Assembly: GCA_009602735.1 (NCBI GenBank)
Contig: WELA01000963.1
Span: forward strand, 124,025 to 188,024
Reading direction: 5' to 3'
DNA from: Mesotaenium endlicherianum
Lineage: Eukaryota
Length of the DNA: 64,000 nucleotides
Shown: in pieces, positions 3,001 to 29,906 of the stretch
Layout of the letters: each line of letters begins with the position of its first letter
How positions within the stretch are numbered: position 1 is the stretch's first letter
Program-made: the position numbers and the translations under genes
The notes under the pieces: generated by a model
What the model was told of the DNA's origin: nothing
The model's database searches: none
What the model saw: only the letters and a program-made list of their open reading frames with translations

Positions 3001-6000
3001 NNNNNNNNNNNNNNNNNNNNNNNNNNNNNNNNNNNNNNNNNNNNNNNNNNNNNNNNNNNNNNNNNNNNNNNNNNNNNNNNNNNNNNNNNNNNNNNNNNNN
3101 NNNNNNNNNNNNNNNNNNNNNNNNNNNNNNNNNNNNNNNNNNNNNNNNNNNNNNNNNNNNNNNNNNNNNNNNNNNNNNNNNNNNNNNNNNNNNNNNNNNN
3201 NNNNNNNNNNNNNNNNNNNNNNNNNNNNNNNNNNNNNNNNNNNNNNNNNNNNNNNNNNNNNNNNNNNNNNNNNNNNNNNNNNNNNNNNNNNNNNNNNNNN
3301 NNNNNNNNNNNNNNNNNNNNNNNNNNNNNNNNNNNNNNNNNNNNNNNNNNNNNNNNNNNNNNNNNNNNNNNNNNNNNNNNNNNNNNNNNNNNNNNNNNNN
3401 NNNNNNNNNNNNNNNNNNNNNNNNNNNNNNNNNNNNNNNNNNNNNNNNNNNNNNNNNNNNNNNNNNNNGGGGGGGGGGGGCGGATGTGATTTTGCACGGG
3501 AGGAAAGGGAGCATGCCTCTAGAGCCTCCAGAACGGCGTCCTGCGGGAGGCACCCCACGAGCGCCATCCCCGCCGCCTGCAGCTTCTGCTTCAGGGGCAA
3601 GTGCTGCTCCGGCAGCACGCCCCCCCCCTGCGCCGCCACTTGTTGCGCTTCTGTGGCGTCGGCGGCTGGTGCTACGGGCGGCGGCGGCACTGTGTAGACC
3701 AGGGAGCCCACGACGTCGACGCTGCCGCGGCGCAGGACGCGCGCGTGGTCCTGCAGAGCCTGCGCTACCTCCTGCTGCCAATCCACTGCAGCGATGTTCC
3801 TGGCACCCTGCAGCCGCCGCCACAGCAGCAGAGCAGCAGCAGGAGCAGGCAACAGGGAAGGACGTGTAAGAGCAGGAGCAGGAGCAGAGAGCATGAGGGG
3901 GGGGGGGAAGGAGGGAGTGGAGCTCCCAAAAAGGGGCAAGGAATTGTGGACGATGCAAGTGGCTCTCTCGTGTAGTAGGCAAGTGATGTGTAGAAGTAGT
4001 ACATCCTTTGCGTGTGCACGTGTGTGCCAGCTCGAGGTGAAATGCTTGGCTGATGCTCCCCCCCCCCTGCCAAATAAGGGTGTGCCCGGTGCGTGCCTAT
4101 TCCCTGGTGATCATTGCCCCACATGGGGCGCACGGCAGAGCAGAGCGTCCGCAGGCTGCAAAAGAGCGATGACATCTGGCACGCCATGACACCGGCGGCG
4201 CGGGTGGGCTGCAGCCCGAAGAGGGAGGGGGAAGCCTCGCCGCTCCCGCTGCCTGGGGCTGGGGCTAGCACCGGCGCTGCCACTGGTGCTGGAGTTGGGG
4301 CTGGGGGCTGGTGCTGGGGCACATGGGCGTCGAGCTCTCTTGCCGAGTTGCACCACGCACGTGCCCTCGCGTCTCACGACAGGGCAGCATGAGGCCAATC
4401 GGAGCAGATGCTCCTCAAGTTGCAGCTCTACCTGTAGCCCCGGCACAATTTGTGGCTGGTTCGAAGCAGCTGAAGGGCGGAGAAGGCGGGGGGAGGGGGG
4501 GGGGGGGTTTGCTTTTCTCCCCGCTGCTGAGCATTCCTTTTCCGTATTCTGTCCGAACGGAAAGGGGGAACGATGACTGGAGCATGACGGGCACGTTGGG
4601 CAGTCCAACCCTCTGATTATCTGCAAGGCCCGGTGGGTGCTTTCCCACCCACGTGTCACCAACTAGCTCCTCGGAGCTGACACCTGTCACCGACTCCTGG
4701 AATGGACGACGGCCTGGACACGTTGCAGCACATCAGCACATCCTCCGACTCTCCCTCCCCTCCCCCTCCCCCCTCTCTCTCTCACAAACACACAGGCACA
4801 CGCACACGTGCACACAAGCCACCAAGGGCGCAGTGAATGCCCCGGGCACACGCCAGGAGCAGGAGGAACCAGGGGGCGCGGCGAGAGGAGAGGCTGACCG
4901 CGCTCCCGCCGCTGCCGGAGAGCACCAGGGGCGCGGCGGCGGCGCGCACGTCGGCCAGCAGGAGCGCGGGGCAGCCGAGCGCGGCGGCGATGGCGGCGTT
5001 GAGCGGCGCCGCGTTGAAGCCGTCCTTGAGGCTGCTGCCCTCCACCACCACAAAGTCGTGCCGCGCCTTGTACTGCTCGTACGCTGCCAGCCTCCCTCTC
5101 CCATGGGGCGGCCGTGGAATCAGCATATGGGTAGGCACACGTGCGCGCATGCGCAGTCTCAACAGTTTGCTGCCATTACATGTTTGTACGCGCATTTGCT
5201 GCACCCCTCACTGCTCGGACTGGGCAGATACAGCTTGCACACACGTCCATTTGCTCCATCGCATGAAGCGTGGACATCAGAATCATACTCAGGCGGCGGA
5301 GATGGCTGAGAATGGGCCGGAGTTGGCAGCTCATCAAGCGCGACTTCCAAACCCGGCACGCCTATCCCCCAGAGCGCGCGCTTTAAGCAGATCTGTTTTA
5401 CAGCGACAGTACGCTTCGCCTCCTTGCGTTGCCAGTCCCTCTGGCAGAGGGAGAGAGAGCGAGCGTGCAAGCAGGGAGAAAAGGGGGGAAGGGTAGGAGG
5501 GAGAGGGAGTGAGAGAGGGAGGGCCTGCGCGCGCTGGCTCGCTGAGTGCTTGCCTTTCAGGATGGTCTCGATGAGATCGTCGGTGTTGTCGGACGCCAGG
5601 TACCTGTAGGCCTCCACCTGAGAGCAGCCCTTCATGTCCTCCAGGGGCCCCGGCAGGCCATACACCTCCTTCACGAGCTTCGTCCGGTCGCCGCCATGTG
5701 TCGTGCTGTCGATCGGCCTGAAGTAGCCCAGGCCGGGGCGCAGGACCGAGAGCGAGTGGATGACGCCAAGTGTCACCGCGGCGGAGTTGATGGAGCTTCC
5801 GAGGCTGGATGCACGCCAAAAGGACAGCAGAGCAGGCAGGTCAGCAGTCGTGCATGAGAGAAGGCCGCATATTTTAAGTGTGCCCCTTTTTGTGCAGGTG
5901 TAGCAGCTGTTACGAGCACGAGGTCGTAGTCTGGGAGCCTTTGACAGTAATGAATTAAAACACAAGTCCTCGTAGGGATTGCAGGCAGTGAGAACAGCGG

Positions 6001-11233: not shown

Positions 11234-13910
11234 ACATAGATGCGCCTTGTGCGCAAGAGCTCGGGAGTCGCTAGCTAGCTTTCACGTACAGTTGCGCGGA
11301 GAAATCAGCGAGCTAGCTAGCTAGGTGGTAGGCATCGAAGGGCTATCATTGCAGAACATCTTTTAGAACATCATTATGCTACAACGTACGGCTCGGGAAT
11401 GGAATCTGCGACCATTGCAGGTCTGGACGTACACATCAGCCTTTGCGCCGTCTCGGGTTGCTTCTTGGAGTGTTAGAAGCCTCTATCCCCATTGTCATCT
11501 CGCGATTTGCAATTTTGTGCTTTGTTCTCCACTGCTATGACGGCCTGATTAAGACGATCAAGAAAAGGCAGAACGATGCCCAAGAACAAAATGACGTCGT
11601 CGTCTGTCGACGTGAGAGAACAAGAAGAGTCATGTTTTGTCATAGGCAACCGGCCGGGTTGAGGAAAAGCAAACCTTGCCATGGCTGTTGCGGACGAACG
11701 CAACACCTAGGAGAGGGGGGCCTCGCCTTGCGCGCGCTTCCGCGCCGACAAGGTCAGTGTGCATGAGCGACGTTCATCGTCGCAACGCACCCACTAGGCC
11801 TGCCTCCCCTCCCCCCCCCNNNNNNNNNNNNNNNNNNNNNNNNNNNNNNNNNNNNNNNNNNNNNNNNNNNNNNNNNNNNNNNNNNNNNNNNNNNNNNNNN
11901 NNNNNNNNCCCCAAAAAAAAAGAAAAGATTGACAATTTGAGCACGCGCTCAAACTTAAGTTTGAAAAGGAGGAAATGTATGAAGTAAAATATCCACCTTC
12001 CTCGGCTTCAAACGAACAGTAGTGTTGACCGTCTCTACCGACCAGGTTCCGCGACTTCCGGGCGGGCCCGTCTTATTTCTTTTTTCTCAATTTCGTTTCA
12101 CCGGCGAGTGTTTTGTCCACGGACTCCGAATCCCCGTTATGTTTTGCCCCCACCGACGTTCCACATCCATGAGGCCCATGTATGGCAATGCATGCCGATG
12201 CATGCATGATTGCGCGTCCCCTCCTGTCACCGCCATCTCCTTCAGACTGACCCGGCATCATCGGTTTCGCTTCCATGTTGCGAGCGGGGCCAAGCCGGCT
12301 CTAGGCATGTCGAAATTGCACCCTGCTCAGTTTGTTGATGGTTATTGCTTGCAGAGCCCGACCGGGCGACGATCCTTTAGTGTGTCCCGCCAATTTGCTT
12401 CCTTCCGCATTAGCTACAATTTTGCGAGAAGGGCTAGCATGAGCTAAATGATCGTGAACATTTCACCAGAACGGTGAAGCATGACAGACACATTCCCCGT
12501 ACACGCCCGAGAGAGAGCGACGAGGGCCCCGTCAAGATGCAAATTGACGAGGGAGGCTAGCTTCCTGCACATCGTAGGGCGTCGCGAGAAGGGGTGTCAT
12601 TCTTTGCACCACCACATCAACCATGCACACCACCCATCAGCTCGTCCAAATGAAGTCTTCAAGGCACGACGAGAGCATGTCTATACCTGCACGTAGCTGA
12701 GGCCGAGAATGAAGCTGTTGACGAGAACAGAAGGCCCATGCAGCAGCTCTTCGCCTCAATCCACGCCTCTGCTCCCATGCAGCTGCTGCTCATACCGCCA
12801 ACCACAACGTCAGTTGCTACTTGGGGTTGATTGAGACTGCTCCCAACCAAATTGAAACAGCCCGCGAGGCCATACATCACATCAGACATCAATGGTCAGG
12901 TCTGTTCCCGGACCACATTCCCTCCCGACCACCCCCTCTCTCTTCCCCATGCACCTAGCTTCTCACGCAGTCCTGTTTGCACCCAGCTTCAGCCATCTTG
13001 TCTCAGACGCTTATGATTCACACAGCTCTGCTGTCTGATTGCCAAGCTTCAGCCACGTTCGCTCTCACCCTCTTTCTTGGGCTCCAACTTCACGCTCCTC
13101 CCTGGCCTTCGTGGACCGACATTTAGCTCCTCCTCTCTTCACTTGCTGTCCCCCTGGCTGTACCTGTTTGGTTTTTCCCTGGAGTCCCACCCACCAACCC
13201 ACCCACCCACCCACCCACGGCAGCACTCTCCACTCCATTACCATGCATCTCGTTCCGCACAGCACAGCACATGCATCTCTTGACTGCTGCTTCCAGTGCT
13301 CCTGAGAACATGCTAGCTTGCTGGGTGCTCATATACTAGACACTGTCCAGTACCAAATGCTGCCCCCTCTCCCTCTCCCTGCCTCTCTCTCCCCCTCTCC
13401 ATGCCTACAGCAGAGTCCCTTACTGCTCCTTCCACCCATCACGTCCGTCCGTCACATCCTCTTGCACATCAATCCACACACAAGTCCCCCACGTACATTG
13501 CTCGCTCGTCCTTCGGCTTCGTGCAATATTTTTGTTTAGCGTCAGATCCGTCTTTGCATGACATACGGCCAGGTCACATATATATATTTCTCTCCCTCCC
13601 TCTCCCTCCCTCCCACCCTCCCTCTCCCTCCCTCCNNNNNNNNNNNNNNNNNNNNNNNNNNNNNNNNNNNNNNNNNNNNNNNNNNNNNNNNNNNNNNNNN
13701 NNNNNNNNNNNNNNNNNNNNNNNNNNNNNNNNNNNNNNNNNNNNNNNNNNNNNNNNNNNNNNNNNNNNNNNNNNNNNNNTCTCTCCCTCCCTCCCTCCCT
13801 CCCTCTCTCTCTCACTCTCCCACCCTCTGCCTCTCTTCCTTCCTCCCTCCCCATCTCCCTCCCTCACTCTGCCTCCCCCTCCCTCTCCCCTTGTTCTGGC
13901 GCGCACGCAG

Positions 13911-16900
13911 GGTAGCCAACCTAGCTCCAATGGCCGCCCTCCCCCCCCGGCGCGGGCAGACGGCCAGGGATGCCGAGCGCCTCGGGCTTCTGCGGCCCGT
14001 CCGGGCGCCTTCTTCTTCGCGGATCTGCGGGTGGAACAGGAGAAGAGCCAGCAGAAGCGGCAGTTTGGCTTCTTCCGCTTCCTGCTGGAGTACTTCAAGT
14101 CGATGGTCACCTTCCTCCGGCGGGAGGTGGGCTTCACCGGCGAGACGCTGGAGACCTACCCCGAGAGGGCCACGCGGGACGGGCACAAGGAATGGATGTT
14201 CTGGATGCGCAGCGGGGGCAAGTATGACGGCGCTGGCCACTCGCACGGCACTCTTGTCAAATACGAAGGCGCGTTCCGCTTATTCGCCAAGGACCACCCC
14301 TCCATGGTGGAGGGCGGCGACGTGGAGGGATTCAGCCAGGAGGCCGTCCAGATGTGGTACCAGTGCGCGCTTCGCTTCGGCGTGGAGCACCCCAAGCGGC
14401 GGGAGCCCATCCTGCGCGCCTACGCGCACCTCATGCTGGCCTCCCTTGACCGCCGCCTCCCCCGCGACGTCGTCAACGGGGCCATGGTCACCCTGGCCAT
14501 GCTGGCCGGCCCGCGCTCTTTGGACCTGGCGAAGGCCACCCTGAGGGAGGTGCGTCTCACGTGGACGCCAAGGGGCGACGGGAGGCCGCCGGCCAGGAAG
14601 CTTGTGTGGGCGGTGAGCTCCCTCCCTTCATCTCCGCAGCCAGCATCCTGTCTGCCCAGCACATCCACCGCTTGCCTCCCCTTGCCCCACGCCAAAGGGC
14701 TCCCTTTGCACCCTCGCCCTGCTCACGCCCCTGCTGCCGCTGCAATTTTTTTGGCTCGCAGTTCTCGCCTAGCAAGAACAGGGCGGAGGTGAACAACAAG
14801 GTGACCGTGACCTACTGGGGCACCGAGTTCCCCCGCTGCGCGTTCGAGTGGGTCGCCCTGATGCTGGAGGAGAGGGGCGTGTTCAAGGCGCCCCTCCTGC
14901 GAGACGCCGGCGGCCGCGCTCTGCCGCGCACAAACTTTACCATCAGGGAGGACTGCTTGGACAAGCCCCTGATTGTGCTCGTGAGGGGCACGACGTACAC
15001 GGAGGAGCCGGTGAGTGGAACACGTGTCTGTGTTGTTCTGCTTGCCCGCGCGTCCCACACACTATGCCCTGACCCCTTGCTTGGCCGTGCGTCCGTAGTG
15101 CCCGCTTGAGTACATGAACAGCGAGGTGAAGGCCATGCTCGTGTACGCCGACATCGATCCTGACAAGAGAAGCCTCAGGAGCTTCCGCTCCGGCAAGCAT
15201 GTCCAGGTGAGCCTCCCACTGTGCGTTTGCATGCGCGTCAGCTCTCTGTCCTCACACCCGCGTCAGTCCGCTGCACCTCGCCCGCACACCCCCCCCCCCC
15301 TTAACACCTTCTCACGGGGCGTCGTCCATCTCGTGGCGGTGTGCGCGCAGAACTCTCTGGACGCTATGGAGAAGAGGCTGGGAGAAACCGGCTACAGCAA
15401 GCTGCCCACCATCAACGCCGACAGCGGGCGGGCTGCCAACTCCGCGTCCGTACCCGCTTCCACCCGCCCCTCCCTTGCCCCCTTCTCTATTCATGTTCAA
15501 TTTAATTCCTCGCATTCGCGTGCACCCGCCCACGTGAACAAGGAGGGAGAGTGTAAGAGACTTGCAGACTTNGAGGGAGAGTGTAAGAGACTTGCAGACT
15601 TGCTCGCTCTTGCATGCCCTGCTCTCAGTAGTAAACCAAAGTGTCTGCATGACATGCTCACCTCACGCGCGTGACTGTTGCTACAATCTACAGAGTGGGG
15701 TTAAACGTGTACACGACGAGAATCGTCGATCAAACCAGACCCAATCTTTAGCTGTACATGGGAGGTATGGCGTGATTGCTAAAGCTTATTTTAAATCTGC
15801 CGCCTGAAGGAAAACATGCAGAAAAAAAGCAGCCCTAATTTGGAATGAAAAAATGAAGTAGTGTCTTTGGGAGAAAAAGAAAGAACGGGGCGGGAGCATG
15901 TGAGAATAAAGGGGTGGGGGGGTGGGAGGGGTGGTGGTCCTGCAAAGCTTCCCTCCCCCTCTTCTACCCCTTTTCCCCACCTCCCCCCATGAGGGACAAG
16001 TCTGTCACTGCTCACTCCGTGCTTGTTCCTGGCTGCCCTGCCGTGACCACGCGCCACGGGGGAGTCGCGGCGCGCGCGCACAGACGACGCCCTTGCTGGC
16101 GGCGCCAACGTGCCCAAGTACCTCGTCCCCAACCCGAAGACGCCCGAGGAGATCGCGGCCAAGGGCCGCCGCCCGCTGTCCCACGCCCCCGAGCTGGGCG
16201 AGAGGTTCTGCGTGCCGCCCCTCTACCAGGCCGCCATGGACCTCGCGTCGCGCCTGGTCGCGGAGCGCGTGTGGTCGCTGGCGCGAGCGCGCGGCCTGGA
16301 GGCCGTCGTGCGCCAGGCGCCGGGGGAGCCCCGCAACGCGACGGCACTTACCACGCCGGAGCTGGAGCGCAAGGCTCGACTCCTCAAGGGGTTGCACAAG
16401 GCCGTCACCCAGGCGGTCGACAACCACTTTGTCGGCAAGGCGCTCGCGCAAGGTGGGCACCCGTCTGCTGCCCTCTTGTCCCTCGCATGCTGCTCCGTCT
16501 CTCCTCCATGTGCGCCTTCTTCCTAGCCCGCCCGCACGCGCGCGCGCCCCAGTCGCCGATGCTCAAGCCGCTGCGAACGGTGGCCCTTTTTCTTTTTGCT
16601 GCGCTCGCCGAATCGCGAGTCAGGACCGAGGGCCGACGCCCCCCTTGATCGCCTGGCTGCGACGCCGCTGCCTCGCAGACGAGGAGTACCTGCACACTGC
16701 GGTCTCCATCCTGGAGGGCATCCCCGGCGAGAGTGACAAGATCTCCGACATGCGCGAGGCCGAGGCGGCCTTTGCCACGTTCCGTCAGCCCTACGTGGTC
16801 GACAAGGAGGGAGGCGTCAAGTACCCTACCCCCGAGCTGGCAAAGAGGGCCAGGTGGTTGCGGAACAGGTCGGTCCACAATCCCACGTTTCTCAATGTGT

Positions 16901-19900
16901 GCGTAATATCTGCAAACCTGTGCATGCTAGTTGAATGCTTTTCTCAGCCAACGCCGCCCTCCCCCTTACCTCTCACAGCTTATCTCTCTCGCCTCCACTC
17001 TCTCTCCACAACATCTCATTTGGTAAATACGGGGGGAAGGCGAGGGGNNNNNNNNNNNNNNNNNNNNNNNNNNNNNNNNNNNNNNNNNNNNNNNNNNNNN
17101 NNNNNNNNNNNNNNGGGGGGGGGGGGGGGGGGGGGGAGGGGGTGTTGATGTCGCTCCATGTACCATCACCGGAAGGACGTCGTCATGAGGCGAGCCACGC
17201 GGTTCGACCCCGGCTTTGAGGCCGAGATGAAAACTATCCCAAAGCAGGGCAAGGACGTGCCCCTGGTGGTCGGCAAGAAGCGGGTGACTTTGACAGAGTG
17301 CGTGAACCGCGCCATGGGTATTATGGAAGAAGGTACGCCCACCCCCTCCCTTTCCCCCAGCCCCCCCACTTAAAATGCAGCCCCGTCATCCTCTGCCGTA
17401 TTTTAGCGTCTGTGTGTGTGCCCGTCCCGCGTGCGTGAGCTTCCCTTGCGACGTCCTTGCCATGGCGCCACGACTCGTGCAATGGAGGCCCGCCTGGCAC
17501 AATGTCACTCACCGTTGGTTGCGCTGGCGCTGCGCTGCGCGCAAGTGTGGGAGAGCCACTCGACCCCGACTTGGAGGGCGCACCGCCGGAGGTGGCGGCG
17601 ACGGGGCGTGACGCGGACCTGGAGAACGCCATCACGGCCATCAATGACGAGTACGGGGCCGAGGTGTCCGGCACAGGGGTGGCGGCGTCGCTGGTGAAGA
17701 AGGTACGCCGACATCGGGACGACCAGGCGGAGCCTGCAGAGACTCGCGGCAGGGGCTTCGACAAGGAGCAATGGGCAAAGTGTAGGAAGCGCCCGCGCGC
17801 ATTGTGAGTGTCCCCCCATCGGTCCACCCTCTCCTCCCCTTTTCAAGCCGGTCCCACCAGGCCCCCACCACACCCTCAACCTCCCCCGGACAGAGCACAT
17901 TTTGCTGATGTGCATTCCTCGTGGCTGCCTATCATCCTGCGTGCGTGCGTGCAGCCTCCACGCATCGAGGCTGTCCATCATCGACGCGGCCCGCAAGGTC
18001 AAGGAGGGCACGTACGGGAAGAGGCAGAGGCATGAAGCCGCCGCCCCGTGCGCCGATGAAATCACGAGGGACGTCGAGACTCCCGTGGCCGCGCGCGCAG
18101 AGGCCCGGGGCGCAGGTGAGCAAGTCGCGCGTGCCTGAGCCTGCCCTCTCTGGGGCCCCAGACAATCTGTTGCCTCCTGCGTGGAAATCTTTTTGCTCCC
18201 CCCTCTCTTTTCCCATGCTTGTATCGTGTCTTGTGCCGCCTACACACACGCTCTGCAGCAGTTTTCCGGCTGCCTAATAACGACGTCTCTCTCGTCGGTG
18301 CATGCTGCAGGAAAGAAGGGGTGGGCCGCCGGCGCCAAGGACCACAACACGGAGCTGGCCATTCAGCGCATGCAGGCCCACGAGGGGACGGAGAAGGAGA
18401 TGCAGGACTTTGCGGCAAGGGTGGAAACCTATCGTGAGAGGGAACAAGCCTACGACGAGGTCTTGGAGCGGGAGAAGCAGTGGGAGGATGACCAGAGGGA
18501 GAAAGAACTCCCGCAGACCAAAGACAAGGTCCTGGAGGAGGAGAAGTCGCGGGTCCGCGCCAGGTGAGACACGCCTCTCCACCCCCGCACCCTCCTTCGC
18601 TTGCCAACTTCCTGCCCCGCCCTCTCCTCGTGTCGTTCTAGCCTCATCCAGCGCCGCCCGCAGTTGCAGTTCCCTCACGCCAAGACCATTGCCCGTCTTC
18701 TCCGTGCGCAGCCTGCACAACTACAGGAAGCAGATCAAGAGCACCGCCGCGCTGCTGGAGACAGGCACTTACGGGAGAGGGCGGCGCAAGAAGCCCGTTG
18801 AAGAGGCCGCGCAGGACAAACACGAGATGGGGAGCGGCCGCGGCGGCGGCGGCGGGGACGCTGGCGAGAGGCCCCCGCACCCGCAGCCCCAGGTTCCCGC
18901 CGGCGCCGTTCACGGGCTGCCGGCACAGTTGGACGACGAGGCCGAGGACGTGAAGCTGGCCGTCCGACGCCTGCTGGAGCACAAGGGGACTGAGAAGGAG
19001 GCGGCAAACTTCGCGAAGAGGATCGAGGAGCTCTGCAAGAGAAAGGGCGAGTACAAGGCATCGCTGGCGGGAGGAGATCACGACGAGAAGAAGAGGCGTT
19101 CGGCCAGGTGGAACTTCGAATTCCCCCCCCCNNNNNNNNNNNNNNNNNNNNNNNNNNNNNNNNNNNNNNNNNNNNNNNNNNNNNNNNNNNNNNNNNNNNN
19201 NNNNNNNNNNNNNNNNNNNNNNNNNNNNNNNNNNNNNNNNNNNNNNNNNNNNNNNNNNNNNNNNNNNNNNNNNNNNNNNNNNNNNNNNNNNNNNNNNNNN
19301 NNNNNNNNNNNNNCCCCCCCTCGTGGCACTTTACATTCCAAACCAGCACTTACATTCGTAGCCAGGTTTTGGTCCTCACGCTGGAATCTTTGGCCGACGA
19401 TGTGCGTGCAGCCTCTCCGGATCCAGGAAGTGCATCAAGACCACGGCGGGTCTCCTGGCGGCAGACAAGTACAGCAGAGCCGGGAAGAAGCGAGCCAAGG
19501 AGGCTGCCGGCCAGCCCCCCTCGGCTCCAGGTGAGCGCGTCATATTTTGCTCGACAAGGGGAAGGGGGCAAGGGGGGGGGGGTGGGGTGGGGTGGCGGTG
19601 TGTGAGAAGGGACCCGTGTGCGAGGGGTTGAGATTGCGGGTGGGAGTGATTGTGGGAAATATTGTGGGACAGGCCAGGCCGCCAAGACTCGGCCCCCTCC
19701 TCAGCCAGATCAGGCCCCAGTGTCACGCCAGCCCCGGACTTGCAGCTTCTGCCGCCTGCGCCGCCGCCTGCTGCGCCTGCAGCTGGTGCAGCTGGGGCAG
19801 ACCAGGCGCTGCGAGGTCTTCGCCAGTCGTCTCCAGACCCGGGTGAGGGCGCGCTGCAGGCAACATAACATTTTGGGCTGTGCATACGCAATCAAGCACG

Positions 19901-22900
19901 AGGCAAACTAAACAGCGCGTGCTGCTGTCTTTGCTCGCTTGCGTGCGTGCGATCGTGTCTGGCAGGTGACTCAGCACACCCCGCCTTTGGGCCACCCCTG
20001 CCCCCAACGTGGCCTACGTCTGCGGACCTGGCCCCCATGCTCGACGGCTCCTTTGCCGGCAATCAGCAGGCCACACTCGCGGCGTAGGCCAGGAGGAACG
20101 AGTCGACACCGTTCGGGCTGGCGAACCCCACCTAGGAGATGTGTCTGCGATATGCCGACGAGATGATGCTGCGGAGAGAGGCACGCGACGCTCCAGCAAC
20201 CAAGTCCGTAGCTGCAACGTGTGCGACGTTGTCAAAGCTGGAGGCCGAGAGGGAGATCGAGGTGCAGCTCTTGCGCGAGACCGCGCAAGTGACGGCCGAG
20301 CGCAGCAGGCTGTCAAGGGAGCTGAAAGAACGCTCCTCTTTTGACTTGTACATGGAATGGCGCAAGTGTCAAGATAAGCTGGGCTCCTCCATCCTGCCCG
20401 TAACCACAGAGCACTTTGCAGACTGGATGGATTCGTTGGTCACTTATCACGAGATGACGTACTCCACCGCCGTCAAGCACACCTTCTACGTCGAGTCCTT
20501 CCTCGTCCGGGGAGAGGAGCGAGAGCCCGGAAAGTTCATCCAGGGGACATTTGATGGCTTCAAGAGGCATTGCAAGGAGCATCTTGGTCGGCATGTGCAG
20601 TGCGTTCTTCACAACTCTCCCCTACCTCATGTGACACCAGAAGCACCGTGTGCCCAGGTTCCAAGGGTTACCTTCAATATGCTTGAAGAACCATCGAGTG
20701 CATTCTGGTTTGCATGTGTTCTGGAATTTCTATATATTTGCGCACGCTGGCGGGTGGTGGGTGTTGGGTGCTGGGGGGGGCGTCAGGAGATTTGACACCG
20801 AATTTCCGTATGAGACGCGGCCTCTGACGGTCGACATGTTCCGCACGCTCATGTCCTCTCTGGACACGAGCCGCCTTAGGGACCTGGTGATGAAGCAGAT
20901 GGTGCAGGTGTTCTGCTTTGCTGCCCTGCGTCCCAATTGTGTGGAGAGCTTGCGGTTGCGTCACGTGGAGTTTGCTCTCACCGAGGGGCCGGACGGAGTG
21001 ACATCTCTCAATGTCATCCTCCTCGTGCCCGACTCAAAGGCAGCCAACTACGCCGAGACGATGGAGTGCGGCTTGGGGGTGGTGCGCCTGGCTGAGTATC
21101 GGCAAGACCCCGAGTGCGTGTCCTTCGTCCCCACCCACGCCTATAAATTAGCTGGTGCCCAGGTGCCACTTTGAAATCATGATTGTAAGAGTTTGTTCAT
21201 GCCCCACATATTTATGAACCATCACGCTTTTTCTGCGTATTGTGTGGCGTTGGCAGCCATTGCGTGGTGAGGACCATCGCGGCCTTTGTCAGCTCCATGG
21301 GAGCATGGTCCCAGGGGTCCATGGCCAAAGCCCTGGAGAGCGGCGACTTGTCCATCGCCGAAGACAAGCTGGATTACGCACTCTTCCCAGTTGTGCACAA
21401 CGAGTGCGTCAAGCCGTTCCAACCGGTATAATTGATTGCCGGCCCCTCTCCCGATAGGAGTTGTTGCATTGAAGGGGGGGGAGGGGGGGGGGGGCACAAA
21501 TTTTTCCGCTGCTTTCTCGCCAAGTAGTGCCTGCATTGTGCCGATCTCTGGCATTTGTTGAATCTGTACAAACTCATGTGTTGGCAGATGTCTCGTGGTG
21601 ACGCAACTGACCGCTTTTGCGATCAACTCATCCACATAGGGCTCCTCGCGGGGGTGGCCAAGTTCTTCACCCTGCAAAGTTGCCGGAACGGCATGGCGAC
21701 CACACTAGCTATCCATCTGTGCGGTGGAAATGGAGGCTTTCCACCTGCAGCCTTGATGGAAGCCATTGCGAGGATCTTGCGCAGATTCGTGGCCACACCA
21801 AAGACTATGGGTGCGTACATGCAGAGCCGTGTCATCAAAGAGGTCCTGGATTGCGACAATGGGTCCGAGGTGAGTTCTCTGTGACTCCCGCACTATTTTT
21901 ATTTTTCTTACGGTTTGGCGACGCGTGACTTGGTTTGCCTTCCTACCCAGCGGTCTGACTTTGTTCTTTGCGCGTCGTGGTTGCTCCAGATTCTTTTGGC
22001 AGAGCGCTTTGCCTTGCACTCGGACAAGTACTTCGCTCAGCCATCGCTGGACGGTGTCAGGCCCTTGCCTGAGGCCCCTAAGGAGATCAAGGAGGCGGGC
22101 ACGTGCGCCTCGGTGATTGCCGTCCGTGACGCGATGGCCAGGCGCTTCCCAGAGGACCTTGAAGAGATCGAGCGTCTCAAAGCCGTGGATAGGAACAAGC
22201 GTATGAAGGGCAGGCTCGAGTTCCTAGGGGACCCCTCGAAGATGTACGACGTCGATGCCGCCTCGAAGGTGAGCGAGCCGGCAAGCACCTCAATGCCCTG
22301 GGAAAAGCGGAGGTACAAGCACGCAAAGTTGTTCGAGCTGAAGGTGGCTCAGGCTGAATTCAAAGCGAAAGTGAAAGAGCTCACGAAGGTGGGTGCACGA
22401 GCGTACGGCCCCCCTTCCTCCCCTCCCTCTCTCGCCCTTCTCACGGTTTTTTTGAGTTGACGTATTTGCTTGCGCACCAGTGCCGACCTCCCCTCTGGCT
22501 GCCTTGACACCGGCTGCCACATGTGCTTGCAAGCAGAGCAGTCAAGGCTGTCGACGGACGACGTCAGCATACGGACAGCGCTCAGGCAAAGCCCCGACCT
22601 TGCAGCCAAGGCAGCAAGGCGGCTGCGCGACCTGAAGAAGGCCAGTTGCGAGCACGACGACTCCGAGGTCGCTTCCCTCGTGAGCGGGTGAGACATTGGC
22701 TGGTGACGCTGGCACGCTATGACGGCGCTGTGAAGCATTTTGTGCCTGTTTCCAAGAGACCATCTTTTGATCCGCTGCAGCCTACACGACCTTGAACACC
22801 GCTCTGTGCAAGGCTTCGCACCTCACGTTTGCCTGCCATGCTTGCAGGATCCGCCAAACGGTGTTAGCGGCCAAGATCCGCGTGCTCAACGCCGGGTTCA

Positions 22901-24268
22901 TCGGGATGGAGGAGCTCCGACCGGGCTGCTGCATCATCAAGCAATTCGACATCGTGCCCTTGCTGAGAGGAGCGCAGGCTGCCACAGGTGGGCCCCTGAT
23001 GAGCCGGGCCAGGTGGACGACGGGAGGGTGGTGGCTCAGCTGGACGGGGCGGAGGTGGTCGTAGACCTGGACAGGCTGGCCAGCTGCTTCGCGCAGCCGG
23101 TCGCAGGGAGGACGCACGCGGTGTTCGAGGAGCACGAATGGAGCGACGACGAGGAGGAGGGGGAGGAGGAGGAGGAGGAGGAGGAGGTGTGTGGCCTCGT
23201 CAACGAGCTGCTCGAGGACGTGAGGGGCCGCACGGGGGAGGGAGCTGGTTGCAGCGACTTCTGCAGCGAGGCCCGCTTGAAAGAGTTGATGATGAACGAG
23301 GCCAGCTCGCAGCCTGGTAAATGGCAGGGGGTTTGGTCATGCATTTCTCACGCTCTCACTCTCAGCTGCACTTTATTGCACGAGAAATGCACAGTAGGCA
23401 TCAGCGATTGCTGAATGAATCTGTTGTGCTCTCGAACTGGCTGGGTGGGGGGGNNNNNNNNNNNNNNNNNNNNNNNNNNNNNNNNNNNNNNNNNNNNNNN
23501 NNNNNNNNNNNNNNNNNNNNNNNNNNNNNNNNNNNGGGGGGGGGGGGGGGGGGGAGGGGGGGGTCCTTGTCCGGCCCCGCACATGTAGTCAAAGGCGATG
23601 GCTGCGCTGCAAACTACGGCTTGGAGGAGGACGTCGACGATGACGATGTCGAGTGGCACTTACCCCGTCAGACCGAGGGTGAGTTCTCTCCATGCGCTGC
23701 CATAACTATGCACCGAGGTCCTAGCATTGTTTCTCCATCGAAGAGGCAAGCGCTGACTACGATGCTTTCCTTCTCGATGGGGGGCTTCACAGAAACAAAA
23801 GGGGAGAGCAGCCTGCTCCACGACAGCGAGGAATGAGCCACGGCAGTCACTACAGCCGACAAGGTCGGTCCACCCTCTCGCAATCTCTCGCCCCCTTCAC
23901 CGGGTAGCGTGTGGTGACTGTAGGCCACCTGTCATGGCGACGTGTGGCAGCACTTGGGTGCGGGGGAGGGAGTGGGATGTAGTCATGATTGTCGCGCCTG
24001 CTGCAACCCGTCCGAGGCGGCGGTGCCGCGCTCTGTGCTGGAGGCTGCCTTGGGCAAGTGTCCGTATGTTGTGCTAGATGGGCAGCGGCGTGACTTTTAT
24101 GCTCTCCCTTCTGTTCACCCGGGCCACAAGCAGAGCCCGGATATGAGTGATGAAAGCTGCAGTGGGCTGAATCAATATTTGTTTGTGTGCGCAGGTTGGG
24201 AGCGCGAAAGGTCCCCCCCTCAAGTCGGAGCTGTGTTGATTTCCCCGTTCCCGTATGCACGGAAGTGA
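13911..24268 (+). pseudogene. Multi-exon gene encoding two tyrosine-recombinase domains (YR-A about 13911-15764; YR-B about 20139-21869), a repeated helical linker and an acidic C-terminal tail; disrupted
   Basis: Exons include 13911-14612, 14762-15010, 15099-15206, 15351-15445, 15694-15764, 16084-16452, 16679-16853, ~17158-17332, ~17550-17803, 17955-18115, 18311-18563, 18712-19107, 19412-19530, 19678-19842, 19966-20590, 20787-21113, 21257-21425, 21588-21869, 21990-22388, ~22542-22687, 22848-23316, 23589-23678. YR-A residues: R(GPR) 14514, K(SKN) 14774, RSFR 15177-15188, Y 15710. YR-B residues: R(ALR) 20929, K(DSK) 21037, QSCR 21675-21686, Y 21816. Lesions: 1-nt deletion near 13990, TAG stops at 15749, 20085 and 20133, and a frameshift near 23000. 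The 3' end is uncertain. Confidence 0.75.
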
Positions 24269-24718
24269 GCCGACGTTCTTTCGTATACAATGTAGTGAAC
24301 AAGATCGCCGTATTGGCCCCCATATTCTTTGTAGCAGGCACGTTAGGGCTAGCGTACTCAGTCATTAGAGGCGCTTACCCACATGGGGTTTCCGACCATG
24401 GACCATGGCACATGTAAATTTGTGATTCATTGGTGATTATTTTGATTTGTATGAGCACCGACTGCATGTATTGAAATCCCCTCCCCCTACCCTTCCTCTG
24501 GCACCCGACTTTTAAGCACAGACGTGTTGTGGCGGTGATCCCCCGCCCACCCAGCTTCATTGGCGAATGTTTCGCCTGGTGACCGTCTCCACCGACCAAG
24601 TTCCGCGACCCCCGGGCGGGTCCGTTTTCGTTCGGTTTTTTTTTCGCTTCATTGGTGGATGTTTTGTCCACAGACTCCAAATCCCCGTTATGTTTTGCCC
24701 GCACCGACGTTCCACCTA

Positions 24719-25057
24719 GCTAGCTTCATTGGCGAATGTTTCGCGTGGTGGTCCTGCCTACGTACCCGGCAGGTGGATGAGGTCTCTTATTCAATTTTTG
24801 ACAAGCTAGCTTCATCAGCGAATGTTTCGCCTGGTGGTCCTGCCTATGTACCCGGCGGGTGGATGAGGCCTCTTATTTAATTTTTGACAAGCTAGCTTTA
24901 TCGGCGAATGCTTGGCCTGGTGGTCCTGCCTATGTACCCGGCAGGTGGATGAGGCCTCTTATTTAATTTTTGACAAGCTAGCTTCACTAGCGAATGTTCC
25001 GCCTGGTGGTCCTTGCCTTGATGCCTGGCAGGTAGATGGGGCCTCTCATTCAATTTT
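24719..25057. repeat. Tandem array of four ~86-bp units (starts 24719, 24805, 24891, 24977); further copies at about 24553-24581 (partial) and 28773-28850
   Basis: Unit consensus GCTAGCTTCATCGGCGAATGTTTCGCCTGGTGGTCCTGCCTATGTACCCGGCAGGTGGATGAGGCCTCTTATTTAATTTTTGACAA, read directly. Units differ by point changes only. Confidence 0.93.
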
Positions 25058-27410
25058 CCTTGTTTCATTATTTTGACGACAGGACCACGGCGCCACTTGC
25101 AAACGGGGGCTTCGACACCTCAAAGGGGAACCAGCCAGAACGAGCAGCAGCATCGATCACGAATGCGCAGCGGCAGCAACATCATGCATACACTTCTCGC
25201 TCGAATTCCTGCAGGCATGCAACAGTCATTGCACGTCCCGCCATTTCCTTCACTCCGCATTAGTCACTTTTATTTTGCGATCGAGGCTACATACGGCTAG
25301 CTAATACTATTGCATCCCGAACACTCTAATACGATAATGCTGCACCGAGACGGAGCACGCAGCATGACGACGCATTCCTTGCACGCGCCCCTACTAACAG
25401 TGCACACCACTGGCATGGTCGGGCGTCGCGAGAAGGGGTGCTGTTTGTTGTACCAGCATCATGCACCCATGCGTCCAGCAGTCCGGGAAGATCAAGAGTA
25501 CAGCGTGAAGCTCCCCTCCTCTCACTGCAACAATGCCACCACAAAAAAAAAAGAGACATGTGACAAGACTTTCGACGGGCTAGGTATAGGGAGAGCCACT
25601 GTCATGTATTAGCACAGACGAGTTCTGCTCGAATGTCTTCCCCGCACCCTCCCGTTTCTGGCCGTCCTTGCTGAAGCTGTGGTCAGACACAAGGGACATG
25701 GGGACATGGCAGGCAAGAGAGAATGCTGCTGGAACTCCGGTCGGACCGTTCTGCTCCTGGCCAGTTCACGCTGCATGCATGAGCCAGACGCAGGAGACAT
25801 GACAGGCTAGGGAGAGGGAGAGTCTACGCCATGCTCGTCATGCTCGTCAGTGCCGCTGGAAGCACCACTCTGATCCAGGCACTTTTCACGCAGAAGCAAG
25901 CAAGAGATATGACAGGCTAGCTCCTTCTTTTGACCTTTGCTTTTTAACTTCATTGCTGTTAGCAGGGAGTGTGCCTTCCTCTTCTCGCACACCAGCCCAC
26001 CACACTAGATCTGCCCTGCCTCGATTCCCCTAGCCGAGGAGCCTGGCGCCTGGCGTCCATTGACGTCCCACTAGCTGCATGTGACCACCACGCACCACGA
26101 GCTTCACACGCAGGTACACACTGCAGGCTCAGGTTCGTGCTCCTCACGACGCCCTCTCTCCTCCCGGGTGATATCTCGATGCCGCTGTTTGCACGATCTC
26201 ATCTGCAGCGAGCAAATTAATTGCAACCAGCTGCTGTTCACGTCAGCCGTGTCCACACCAAGGATAGGGATGCTGCTTGCAGAACCAGTTTCAGCCAGCA
26301 GCCCATGGGCTTCTACATTATGCAAGCCTGCTGACACAACAGGGCCGTGATGCACGCGCATCTGCGCTTGCAGATCACACCACATGGCAGTGCAGTGGTG
26401 CAGGTGCAGGGCAGGCCACATTCTTTGCCAGTTCCTCATGCACCGTCTACCCCTTCCTCTTGATGTGTCCTTGCCGTCACATGCATGCCGCTCTCGCTCT
26501 CTCCCCCTCACCAGCCTCAAATGCAAGTTTGCAGTCTTTGTTTGGTGCGGTAAAAGAGTGCTTAATTGTTGCTGATGTTGCTGTGGCATGCAACATCCTG
26601 GTGAGCGCACTGTAGCCGTTGTGTGTGCATAAAGCAAGTCTTATATCTCCTCTCGTCTCCGCGTGCGGGACCTGACTTGTGGAGGTGGTCGGGGTTTCTC
26701 CGCACATTTTGCAATTGTCCTTTGGAAAAACACAGAGAGTTTGAATCTTTTAAGTCTAATGCAACAATGTCAGGGTGGCCGAACGCGAGTCTGCAGAAAT
26801 CTGTCCTTTGAATACCCAGAAGGCAAATGCATACAGCTGTGTGGATGCAGTGCCCGCACTGTGACCTTCAGCTCGGCAGCCAGTCTTTGTTGCAACTTCA
26901 ATGATTACCACCCCTAGCTGGCGTGCGTCGCACAAGTGCCTCCTTGAAGCAGTTTCCTGACTGATCACAAAACGTTTTCTTGCACATGCAGGCTTCACGT
27001 CACACACACAAGCCCCCCCCCCTTCTTTCACGCTTGATTGGCGGCTGCATCATCTGACGTCAACCCAGATCCTACTCGCGCAACAGGCTTGCCAGGTTGG
27101 TGCTTCTCGCATGGCCCTCTTCTAGCACGAAGCTCTCTGGTTTGCCATTGCAATCTCTGCCTGAGCATATTGCACATGACTCTGCTCGACGCAGTGAGGC
27201 TCATCATGCGGTCTGCCATTCTCGCAGCCGAGCCCTGCTGTCCCCATCAACTGTCCCTCAATTCGTTGCCTCCTCTAGGCAATGATTTGGTCTCCCTCAC
27301 TATCTCCCTCTCTCCCCTCTCCATGTGTCCATCACACCCTCTCCCTCCCTCCTCTCCCTTTCCATTGCTCTAACTCCCTCCTTCTCCCCCTGGTTTCGCC
27401 GCTCTCGCAG

Positions 27411-27831
27411 GGTGGCCGCCCTCCCTCCGATGTCCGCCCTCCCCACACGGCGCGGGCGGGCGGCCAGTGCTGCCGAGCGCCTCGGGGGCCCCGAGGCCCG
27501 TTCGGGCGCCTTCGTCATCGGGGAGCTGCAGGAGGGACTGGAGAGGAGCAAGCAGAAGCGGCAGTGTGGCTTCTTCGGCTTCCTGCTGGAGTAGTTCAAG
27601 TCAAAGGTTGCCTTACTCCGGCGGGAGGTGGGCTTCACGGGGGAGCCGCTGGGGTCCTGCGCCAAGCGGGAACGCCACAATGAGTGGATGTTTTGGATGC
27701 GCAGCGGCAGCAAGTACGGTGGCGCGGGCCACACGAACGGGACTCTCGTCAAGTACAAAGGCGCGTTCCGCCGCTTTGCCCACGACCACCCCTCCATGGT
27801 GGAGGGCGGCGACGTCGAGGGGTTCGGCCAG
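27411..27831 (+). pseudogene. Truncated paralogous copy of the first YR-A exon
   Basis: Translates to MSALPTRRG...KQKRQCGFFGFLLE*FKS...EWMFWMRSGSKYGGAGHTNGTLVKYKGAFRRFAHDHPSMVEGGDVEGF, collinear with 13911-14340. It has the same cgcag|ggt acceptor and a TAG at 27592-27594. Confidence 0.92.
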
Positions 27832-28867
27832 GTTTTGACCGTCGTCTTTCCATCGTTTTTTTTCCTCTTTTTTTCGCCTCCCCTCCCTATTGTCACAACT
27901 GAGCGACTTTCAGGTCATGCAACGGGACCCAGGCGGGACCCGGCGCCACTTTGTAACGGGAACCCTCAACACCAGCCCAACTGAGCCCAACCCAGCCCAG
28001 CAGCTGCAAAGTGCTGCAAAGCTACATGACGCGAACATCCTTTGCATATGCATGTCCCGCCATTTCCTTCTCTCCACATTGCAGTCACTTAATTGCGAGC
28101 GGGGCCACATGCATATACAACTAGCCAATATTATTGCATCTCGAACACGCTGATACACTAATGTTTTACCCCAACGGAGCTTGCAGCATGACGACGACGC
28201 ATCCCTTGTGCGCGCCAGTATCACTGATTGAGCACACCACACACATCCTCGGGCGTCGCGAGAAGGAGTGCCACTCTCATGGCACCGTCGTCATGCACCC
28301 GTGCACCCGTCTGTCCAGGAGGATAGAGAGTGCAATGCCGCCATAAAGAGCAGACACAAGAAGAGTCACGACAGGCTAGATGAGGATGTGGCGTTCTAGG
28401 GAAGGAGAGAGAGAAATAGAGTCTCTTCCATGCTCGTGATTGCTGCTGGAATCTCTTCCTGCACCCGGCATTTTTTCGCTGAAGCAAGCCAGACACGGTA
28501 AGCTAGCTCCCTCCTTCCCCTCCCGATGATGTCTCGATGCTGCCGTCTGTTTGATCCGCAGCGAGCAGATCAATCACAGCCACCGCCATGCAGCTAACAT
28601 GTTCCCTGCTACCGCGCCTACAGAGCACACCACATACATGGCACTGCAGTGGTGCAGATTGCAGTGCAGGTAGGCACACATTCTCTGCCACTACCTCATT
28701 TGTTCTGACCGTCTCCACCGACCAAGTTCCGCGAATTTCGGGCGGATCCGTCTTATTTCTTTTTTAGATTTCGCTTCATCGGCGAATAATTCGCCTGGTG
28801 GTCCTGCCTATGTGTACCTGGCAGGTGGATGAGGCCTCTTATTTAATTTTCTTTGTTTTTTTTTTCC

Positions 28868-29080
28868 GACGACAGGACCACGTCGCCACTTGTGAACGGG
28901 GGCTTCGACACCTCAAAGGGGGAACCAGCCAGAACCAGCAGCAGCATCGATCATGAATGCGCAGCAGCAGTCGTCGACCACGGCCCCACTTGTGGTTGGG
29001 GGCTTCGACACCTCGAAGGGGGAACCAGCCAGAACCAGCAGCAGCATCGATCACGAATGCGCAGTAGCAGCAGCAGCATC
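28868..29080. repeat. Two tandem ~100-bp units within the element end module; a single copy at about 25075-25185 and a diverged one near 27940
   Basis: The sequence GACCACG..CCACTTG..GGGGGCTTCGACACCTC.AAGGGGGAACCAGCCAGAACCAGCAGCAGCATCGATCA.GAATGCGCAG recurs. Confidence 0.88.
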
Positions 29081-29906
29081 ATGCATTCACTTCTCGCTCG
29101 AAGTCCTGCAGGCATGCAACAGTCATTGCATGTCCCGCCATTTCCTTCACTCCGCATTAGTCACTTTATTTTGCGAGCGAGGCTACATACGGCTAGCTAA
29201 TATTTGGCTACGTGTTCTGACTTTATTGGCTGGTACGTACTTGAAGTACGTCTTTTCATTCAACGATTGGCTGTTTCGTACTCATTGTACCACACCTCCA
29301 CTTTGATTGGTGATTTGCCGCACCCACTCATCAGAAATTTACGAACATGGTACGGTTGAGTACGAACATTTACCAAGGTCAACAGTCGTTCTCTGGTGGG
29401 CGTCAACTGAAATGTGAGTGCTCTCAACTCCGCTCACGCTTAACCAACTTTTGAACCATCCTTATTGAGCTAGTCCTCTCGCTTTGCTTCGGCCCGGGAG
29501 GGACCCGAACCCATCGAGCATGCAGTGTGACAGCCCTCTCGTCCATGAAAGAGCATCATCACCTTGGTCGATTCCGGCAGAATCGTTCGTTCGTCCTTCG
29601 AATTCTTCGAACTGCCATGCATTTCCTGTTGCTTAATTCTCAAACACCGCCATTAAGATCGTGGGCTCACCCACGTCTCCCATGCTTCAATGCCCACCGT
29701 TACTTTCACGATCCAAATATAAAACAAACTCCACTACGTCTCTGCTTTCAGAACGGGACAATCTTCTAGTGTCAGGACAAGGTAAATCCTATGAAAAACT
29801 TTTTATCGTCGAAGAGTGTCTAACATTGTTCACAACAGGACCGCGATTAGTAAGTTCGTAAAAGTCCTGTTTAGCACGTCTCTTGGTCCGACTTACACAC
29901 GCGACT

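Follow-up and report, generated by a model that had tools for sequence, protein, structure and literature searches.

A broken copy of an undescribed two-recombinase element family in Mesotaenium endlicherianum and the likely fusion of its tyrosine recombinase domains in intact copies

Cryptons (CryptonF, S, A and I; Kojima and Jurka 2011, PMC3212892) are eukaryotic, repeated elements coding for a tyrosine recombinase (YR), with neither a reverse transcriptase nor obvious long terminal inverted repeats. An active member, CryptonF-1_cRei, is described in Chlamydomonas with data consistent with the Crypton model (PMC9977147), and Ndc10 is given as Crypton-derived (PMC3212892). The same general features are found in an element located in 64,000 nucleotides of Mesotaenium endlicherianum (assembly GCA_009602735.1, contig WELA01000963.1, positions 124,025 to 188,024 of the forward strand), a stretch called here the window. 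The gene of this element was rebuilt from window DNA, and all coordinates are those of the whole stretch, + strand. The described Cryptons carry one YR, in some cases together with GCR1_C, C48 peptidase, HTH or DDE, whereas the window element carries two divergent putative YRs, YR-A and YR-B, and a linker of 750 residues. Cryptons have 4–6 bp terminal direct repeats or a target word, which are not established for the window element. GCR1_C, the C-terminal domain of CryptonF, had no Pfam match in the single exons after YR-B, the short pieces limiting sensitivity. By analogy, a Crypton-like mode of action is likely, but with two YRs the element falls outside the definition of this group, which allows one.

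A GRW- or GRA-like C-terminal motif is common to the YRs of DIRS/Ngaro, the Starship captains (DUF3435) and the present element. DIRS/Ngaro possess an open reading frame (ORF) for reverse transcriptase and RNase H. In the window element two YRs are present and the motif and coding scans were negative: there is no [YF]xDD-hydrophobic reverse transcriptase motif in the six frames of 11900–29300 (called bases) and no such ORF in the coding scan. The view that this is an intron-rich gene of a repeated family devoid of the reverse transcriptase motif is supported. Starship consists of a DUF3435 captain and cargo genes in a filamentous fungus; here the host is not a fungus, two YRs are found and no cargo genes are present in 12023–29202. 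For DUF3435 there was no Pfam match, the only lead being an Atlas cluster (11% DUF3435) for YR-B exon 20797–21111.

XerC/XerD and the TnpA/TnpB pair of Tn554 are separate YR chains acting together; these systems and RIT elements employ two or more different YRs, like the family described here, but as separate proteins. RitA possesses two core-binding domains, not two whole recombinases (Smyshlyaev et al. 2021, PMC8138268). RecF8 is an engineered fused heterodimer, which recombines an asymmetric site and is inactive on symmetric ones (Lansing et al. 2022, PMC8776779). Like the proposed protein, it combines two different Cre-type monomers in one chain, so such an architecture can work. However, RecF8 is engineered and has a short GGS-based linker between near-identical monomers, whereas the present domains are natural, 23% identical, separated by a very long linker and known from sequence alone. 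YR recombination needs four subunits, and the known asymmetry comes from separate proteins or engineered fusions. No natural protein with two whole YR domains was found in the literature, the coverage of which left out Repbase, theses, most subscription journals and the Crypton schematics of PMC9977147; papers retrieved for paired YR domains concerned rve domains and SCCmec.

The preliminary description of the locus proposed that both domains belong to a single polypeptide. This is false for the window copy itself: it has eight breaks, of which six lie in the interval between the two domains, and encodes no single protein. It is a broken, still partly transcribed member of a multi-copy DNA element that is likely mobile. 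In intact members of the family, about 24 exons would probably be spliced into one frame of about 1,950 codons fusing YR-A and YR-B; the order of this chain would be YR-A, a charged and Pro/Ala-rich linker, YR-B and a tail. The exon structure, the splicing of most linker and YR-B junctions, the multiple divergent copies and the intact state of five of the eight breaks in sister sequences are directly supported. Since these five breaks are intact in sisters, six of the eight junctions proposed earlier are spliced and a contig runs from the linker into YR-B, an ancestral fused ORF is the best reading. The two-YR family is real and undescribed, and its fusion is likely, not proven; the grades given below to the fusion and to single junctions are judgements, not computed values.

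Both domains very probably possess the YR fold, presumably of the Cre/lambda-Int type. The eight catalytic residues named earlier are all present on the + strand (Table 1), so that R, K, R and Y follow in order in each domain with YR-like spacing. The distance from R to K is 37 residues in YR-A and 36 in YR-B, and that from the second R to Y is 44 in both, the second R and Y being assigned by motif only. The two domains are homologous to each other: they share 23% identity across 220 residues, and their Smith-Waterman score of 88 exceeds the highest value obtained from 1000 shuffles (59). YR-A exon 1 has Atlas feature matches of 0.95–0.96 to clusters with Phage_int_SAM_1 and Phage_integrase (12% and 52% PF02899), and the YR-B catalytic exon (20797–21111) has matches of 0.95–0.97 to clusters with DUF3435 (11%), DUF3504 (31%) and Phage_integrase (22%); one of 100 shuffled proteins reaches 0.95, and the YR families are carried by a minority to half of the members of the matched clusters. 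The earlier proposal of two YR-like domains thus stands on the Atlas matches, the mutual homology and the matching R–K and R–Y spacing.

With shallow profiles, hhalign gave an alignment colinear with Cre 62–202 in which R coincides with R173 and K coincides with or adjoins K201 (P 0.0014 and 0.005; low-probability alignment, shared rows), and the YR-B N-domain was colinear with Cre 62–130 at low probability. A HMMER search of 1.84 billion representative proteins returned two relatives of YR-A, P0001 and P0002, both unnamed singletons; YR-B is homologous to P0002 as well. When the P0002 model (pLDDT 45) was compared by VIA with 48,161 chains, the top rows were Ndc10 (Z 6.1, rmsd 3.4, 88 residues aligned; Z 5.9, 3.6, 84), and Cre ranked seventh (Z 5.5, rmsd 4.6, 88 aligned). 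A helical core-binding N-domain in YR-A is supported by the Atlas clusters and by the fit of the homolog model to the Ndc10 and Cre N-domains (Z 5.5–6.1, weak alone). P0001 ends with 'SSP-VSGGL' where YR-A reads 'EEP-VSGTR' into its intron at 15010, which suggests that this intron position is common to YR-A and its distant relative. P0002 has no stretch matching exon 15099–15206, which holds the HxxR-equivalent motif.

Several results count against the YR assignment. Single exons and homologs had no YR match in Pfam, PHROGs, NCBIfam and PDB sequence searches, and a small Cre-family HMM scored the model no better than 200 shuffles. The two AF2 models are of low quality (pLDDT 45 and 52), and no Z value reaches 8. 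Foldseek with the low-confidence P0002 model found nothing at E <= 0.001, and VIA with a low-confidence single-sequence model of the YR-B N-domain (pLDDT 52) placed no YR in the top 50. In other searches, word-based comparison with longer proteins gave nothing for YR-A exon 1, YR-B exon 20788 or alignment A3, which is weak evidence. Viral scans produced no locus and plasmid tblastn no match. Three metagenome loci (L001–L003) were rejected as chance matches on one 8-residue word; the ORF of L003 is one which we take, from its motifs, to be Hsp70-like. When single exons are searched, Pfam, PHROGs and NCBIfam do not detect the family, and only two relatives turned up among the 1.84 billion representatives; similar elements have therefore probably been missed in algal annotations.

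The first gene model comprised 21 exons (13911–22987, GC3 0.81). When the frame of each exon was chosen solely by its codon score, all 11 successive junctions from exon 14762 to exon 19412 (end 19530) matched in phase; for two of them the acceptor has no AG and was set by the analyst, leaving nine of nine canonical GT..AG junctions to count. Three junctions or segments around exon 19673–19842 are out of phase in the window copy. The linker consists of a charged module, interrupted by a phase-2 intron and present in three or four copies, and then of a Pro/Ala-rich stretch (module alignment). An alternative frame of exon 19741–19842 with the top codon score (GC3 0.94) resembled a zinc finger, but is more probably an off-frame reading of an Ala/Pro-rich stretch.

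Splicing was traced in public sequence data. Sixteen runs from five studies contain part of the stretch, and eight runs were compared, namely seven of these and one raw RNA run (X17; 6% of reads examined), which gave 35 partial reads, none informative. Runs X1, X9, X10, X13 and X14 were taken as RNA solely from the GT..AG joints in their contigs; the DNA-like run X6 has no GT..AG intron-skipping joint among those listed. Six of the eight junctions predicted earlier were seen spliced (16452/16679, 17803/17955, 18115/18311, 18563/18712, 19107/19412 and 19842/19966, the last, leading into the YR-B exon, in X10 and X14). The acceptor predicted at 19678 was wrong, 19673 being used after donor 19530 in X1, X9 and X14. 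Within YR-B and behind it, joints 20599/20787, 21113/21257 and 21869/21990 are spliced in contigs. In one X1 contig of 3477 nt, the pieces listed run from 17154 to 21113 and show zero mismatches; its coordinates match the exon lengths exactly, although such a contig is not proof of one molecule. Intron 17333–17544 is retained in it, as predicted for a dead acceptor at 17544. The four introns of YR-A are not among the RNA joints listed, and donor 15445 and acceptor 15694 have weak splice scores.

The window copy is broken by three TAG codons (15749, 20085 and 20133), all in frame between the two domains, by the lack of AG at two acceptors (17153 and 17544) and by shifts of a single base in three places (13983, 19708 and 22991). 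The shift at 13983 puts ATG 13930 out of frame; an extra base is found there in one X1 contig (depth 3.2) and in the second copy in the window. TAG 15749 is CAG in an X1 sister, and TAG 20085 is TGG in an X9 sister. With the real acceptor 19673, translation of the window copy departs from the YR-B frame and ends at TGA 20164–20166; sister DNA contigs have one extra base at 19708 (three X6 contigs, 268 of 358 depth), which restores the YR-B frame. An extra base at 22991 occurs in an X13 contig. Thus three of the six breaks between the domains (15749, 19708 and 20085) are intact in sister sequences. Among 40 listed sites, the window copy has T/A against C/G of the sister at 26 and the reverse at 4, and the whole X6 tally is 176 against 119; this A/T shift is as expected of a decaying copy. 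Recoding of TAG as the cause of the three stops was rejected: two of them are CAG and TGG in sisters, the Tyr codon of the first YR-A copy is replaced by TAG in the second, and no in-frame TAG occurs in three exons of the acetate kinase gene. As for a stop or poly(A) site between the domains, the three TAGs are present, two of them being sense codons in sisters, and no TGTAA occurs between 15749 and 20139 in called bases.

Joining of YR-A to exon 16084 in intact copies is proposed with high confidence. One X6 contig is gap-free from 15737 to 16219. With anchors chosen by eye, P0002 remains colinear with YR-A beyond TAG 15749 and as far as exon 16084, a fit reached by 23 of 5000 shuffles; an unanchored comparison of the C-terminal part of YR-A with P0002 was not significant (117 of 2000 shuffles). 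Acceptor 17544 lies one base from a high-scoring site (9.7) and was very probably functional in intact copies. It is highly likely that the linker of intact copies reads into YR-B: over the 15 codons before TAG 20133, GC3 in the YR-B frame is 14/15, a value reached by 20 of 2118 intron windows.

The weakest point of the fusion is the junction of 16853 with 17154, which is nevertheless quite likely to be joined in intact copies. Here an alternative has to be weighed, in which YR-A has a gene of its own, about 600 codons long and closing after exon 16679–16853, and the linker and YR-B form another gene starting near ATG 17158, the separate chains of the two acting together. RNA contigs of two studies (X1 and X10) both end at 16866, a point that DNA run X6 passes; the long X1 contig starts near 17117–17154, at a poly-G run beside 17154; the site at 17153 has no AG, and a gap of 67 N could hide signals. 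The extent of P0002 (609 aa, the longer of the two database homologs) equals YR-A plus its extension, since it has one YR-A-like domain and its length after Tyr is about that to the end of exon 16853. Against two genes, exon 16679–16853 ends without a stop at a good donor (score 6.5), and read-through or alternative terminal exons have negative codon scores. Exon 17154 starts with the second half of the repeated module, the other three copies of which are split by an intron of the same phase; the 16853/17154 junction is the top match to this module (best of 1792 positions, 0 of the 1791 others scoring as high), and the site at 17153 is one base away from an ordinary acceptor. Two separate genes are thus unlikely.

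A second alternative is that YR-B is a frame of its own, starting from ATG 20139 or 20163 behind a real stop at 20133, on a bicistronic mRNA or on a transcript with its own start. TAG 20133, with GAG ATG directly after it, is present in all three listed readable contigs (X1, X9 and X10 record 6), but these contigs either represent the window copy or differ from it only within a 24-nt patch, and more distant sisters cross 20133 gap-free (X10 record 7, X15 record 19). YR-B forms an unbroken ORF of 667 codons with all catalytic residues in the window copy's own transcript (20139–23064, spliced), versus seven breaks in the upstream 1,150 codons; yet the coding bias in the YR-B frame reaches up to the stop, and TAG 15749, likewise with an ATG after it, is a sense codon in a sister. 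Polycistronic mRNAs exist in green algae (PMC7896298), and algal bicistronic mRNAs are described as using leaky scanning (PMC11291117). Here 34 ATGs are located in the 3460 nt of modelled mRNA upstream of ATG 20139, far from the few start codons of green-algal bicistronic loci, so leaky scanning to YR-B is disfavoured and a separate YR-B frame appears improbable.

The fused ORF of intact copies remains the preferred reading, and the following observations should be set against it. No RNA joint among those listed crosses 15764/16084 (also a junction of the earlier proposal), 16853/17154 or 17332/17545. TAG 20133 is never a sense codon among the variants listed; the X9 contig with TGG at 20085 retains it, and an ATG stands two codons after it. 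Of the three X6 contigs that carry the extra base at 19708, one is also short of a base at 19751 and has a third gap whose position was not assigned.

Mobility of the family is likely, as judged from its copy number. By analogy with Cryptons, the element would be excised as a circle and integrated by site-specific YR recombination at a short word; excision and re-integration of this kind would account for the head-to-tail and nested fragments. YR-A and YR-B both lack the His of HxxR and the His/Trp before Tyr, having R and A in YR-A and Q and F in YR-B, positions assigned by motif and spacing. In a substitution scan of Cre, H289Q and W315F were active, H289R was inactive and W315A had no activity in vitro (PMC2943603). 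These active-site residues would make the domains unequal: YR-B, with Gln and Phe tolerated in Cre, could do most of the cutting, and YR-A, with Arg and Ala inactive or nearly so in Cre, could be a weak cutter serving mainly as a binding or gating partner. This prediction may not hold, as it is carried over from the distant enzyme Cre and P0002 keeps the Trp. The four synapse subunits could come from two fused chains, acting as an obligate A–B pair. Tentatively, the family could represent an undescribed lineage of eukaryotic DNA transposons moving by a natural single-chain asymmetric YR pair, in which YR-B cuts, YR-A binds or gates and each domain reads a different half-site or end. If true, such a chain would reveal how, within a single gene of a eukaryotic element, partner, strand order or direction can be fixed, and would be a natural version of the engineered fused pairs and a template for recombinases on asymmetric sites. 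Neither element ends nor an empty site were found in the sequence covered, which weighs against mobility.

A third alternative is very improbable, in which the family would be no transposon and would instead descend from a DNA-binding gene composed of two inactive YR folds that was amplified or domesticated, comparable to the Crypton-derived Ndc10 or DUF3504 genes: the absence of both His and His/Trp residues, the Ndc10 top rows, the many introns and the lack of ends would fit this, but R, K, R and Y are kept in both domains, the copies are many, divergent, truncated and nested, and the window copy decays as repeats do in an intergenic cluster beside the acetate kinase gene.

Table 1. Parts of the two-YR element and related fragments in the window
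Feature	Position	Strand	Details
5' non-coding part of element	12023..13910	+	acceptor at 13910 just before start codon; left end not defined
YR-A	13930..15764	+	exons 13911–14612, 14762–15010, 15099–15206, 15351–15445, 15694–15764
YR-A catalytic residues	R 14514, K 14774, RSFR 15177, Y 15710	+	
YR-A C-terminal extension	16084..16853	+	exons 16084–16452, 16679–16853; 16452/16679 spliced in X9, X10
Putative intron	16854..17153	+	67-N gap (17048–17114) and poly-G run; 3' end without AG
Linker	17154..20135	+	exons 17154–17332, 17545–17803, 17955–18115, 18311–18563, 18712–19107, 19412–19530, 19673–19842, 19966–20135
Linker breaks	acceptor 17544, 19708, 20085, 20133	+	
YR-B	20136..21869	+	exons to 20599, 20787–21113, 21257–21425, 21588–21869; no break in window copy
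YR-B catalytic residues	R 20929, K 21037, QSCR 21675, Y 21816	+	
C-terminal tail	21990..23836	+	exons 21990–22388, 22542–22687, 22848–23316, 23589–23678, 23793–; frameshift 22991; TGA stop near 23834
Last exon	24195..24417	+	joint 23863/24195; TGTAA at 24413
Further family fragments	24543..29202	+	same orientation; 86-bp tandem array, second YR-A exon 1, more 5' pieces (self-comparison)
Decayed second YR-A first exon	27410–27832	+	79% identical; TAG replacing Tyr

The multi-copy nature of the family follows from run X6 and the second copy in the window, genome-wide dispersal not being seen. In X6, 163 contigs cover the 3' part of YR-A, the linker and the 5' part of YR-B; 39 have an identity of 99% or more, 44 of 95–99%, 32 of 90–95% and 48 under 90%. 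Within the window, the 5' blocks 12023–12164, 12570–12626 and 13795–13928 are colinear with 24577–24715, 25414–25472 and 27292–27428 at 70–83% identity. The word TGACCGTC is located at 12026, 24580, 27836 and 28706, its only four occurrences on either window strand, all within the element cluster; similarity appears to continue upstream of it. At 27836 the word stands four bases past the break of the second YR-A exon. A tandem unit of 86 bp (24554–25057 and 28773–28850) contains the palindrome GGCGAA-n3-TTCGCC, perfect at 24562 and 28781 and near-perfect at 24731 and 24903, and is a candidate recombinase-binding array.

The tail, with exons backed by RNA joints and translation, had no Pfam match among the pieces scanned and belongs to no known family. 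A short beta-rich stretch without Pfam match (22848–23100) precedes an acidic run and is presumably Tudor/KOW-like. At 23924–24065 lies a Cys/His-rich exon remnant, which we take to be PHD-like; RNA omits it, its phase agrees with that of the exon that terminates at 23863, and the TGA near 23834 lies upstream of it; the protein of intact copies may hence be longer. TGTAA at 24413 is presumably the green-algal poly(A) signal, and the other TGTAA words in 13911–24420 (15552, 15582 and 21184) are all intronic.

The element is located in an intergenic cluster downstream of an acetate kinase gene (PF00871, 9097–11233), which stands head to head with a phosphotransacetylase-like gene (DRTGG/AAA_26). 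This gene pair, the intron signals and TGTAA at 24413 presumably indicate a green alga. A 30-nt duplication at the single N 15572 (15543–15602, intronic) is missing from X1 and X6 contigs and is an assembly artefact. In the region of the phosphotransacetylase-like gene, 1127–2626 and 3469–4968 form a 1500-bp, 100% identical duplication flanking a gap of 842 N, which is probably an assembly artefact as well.

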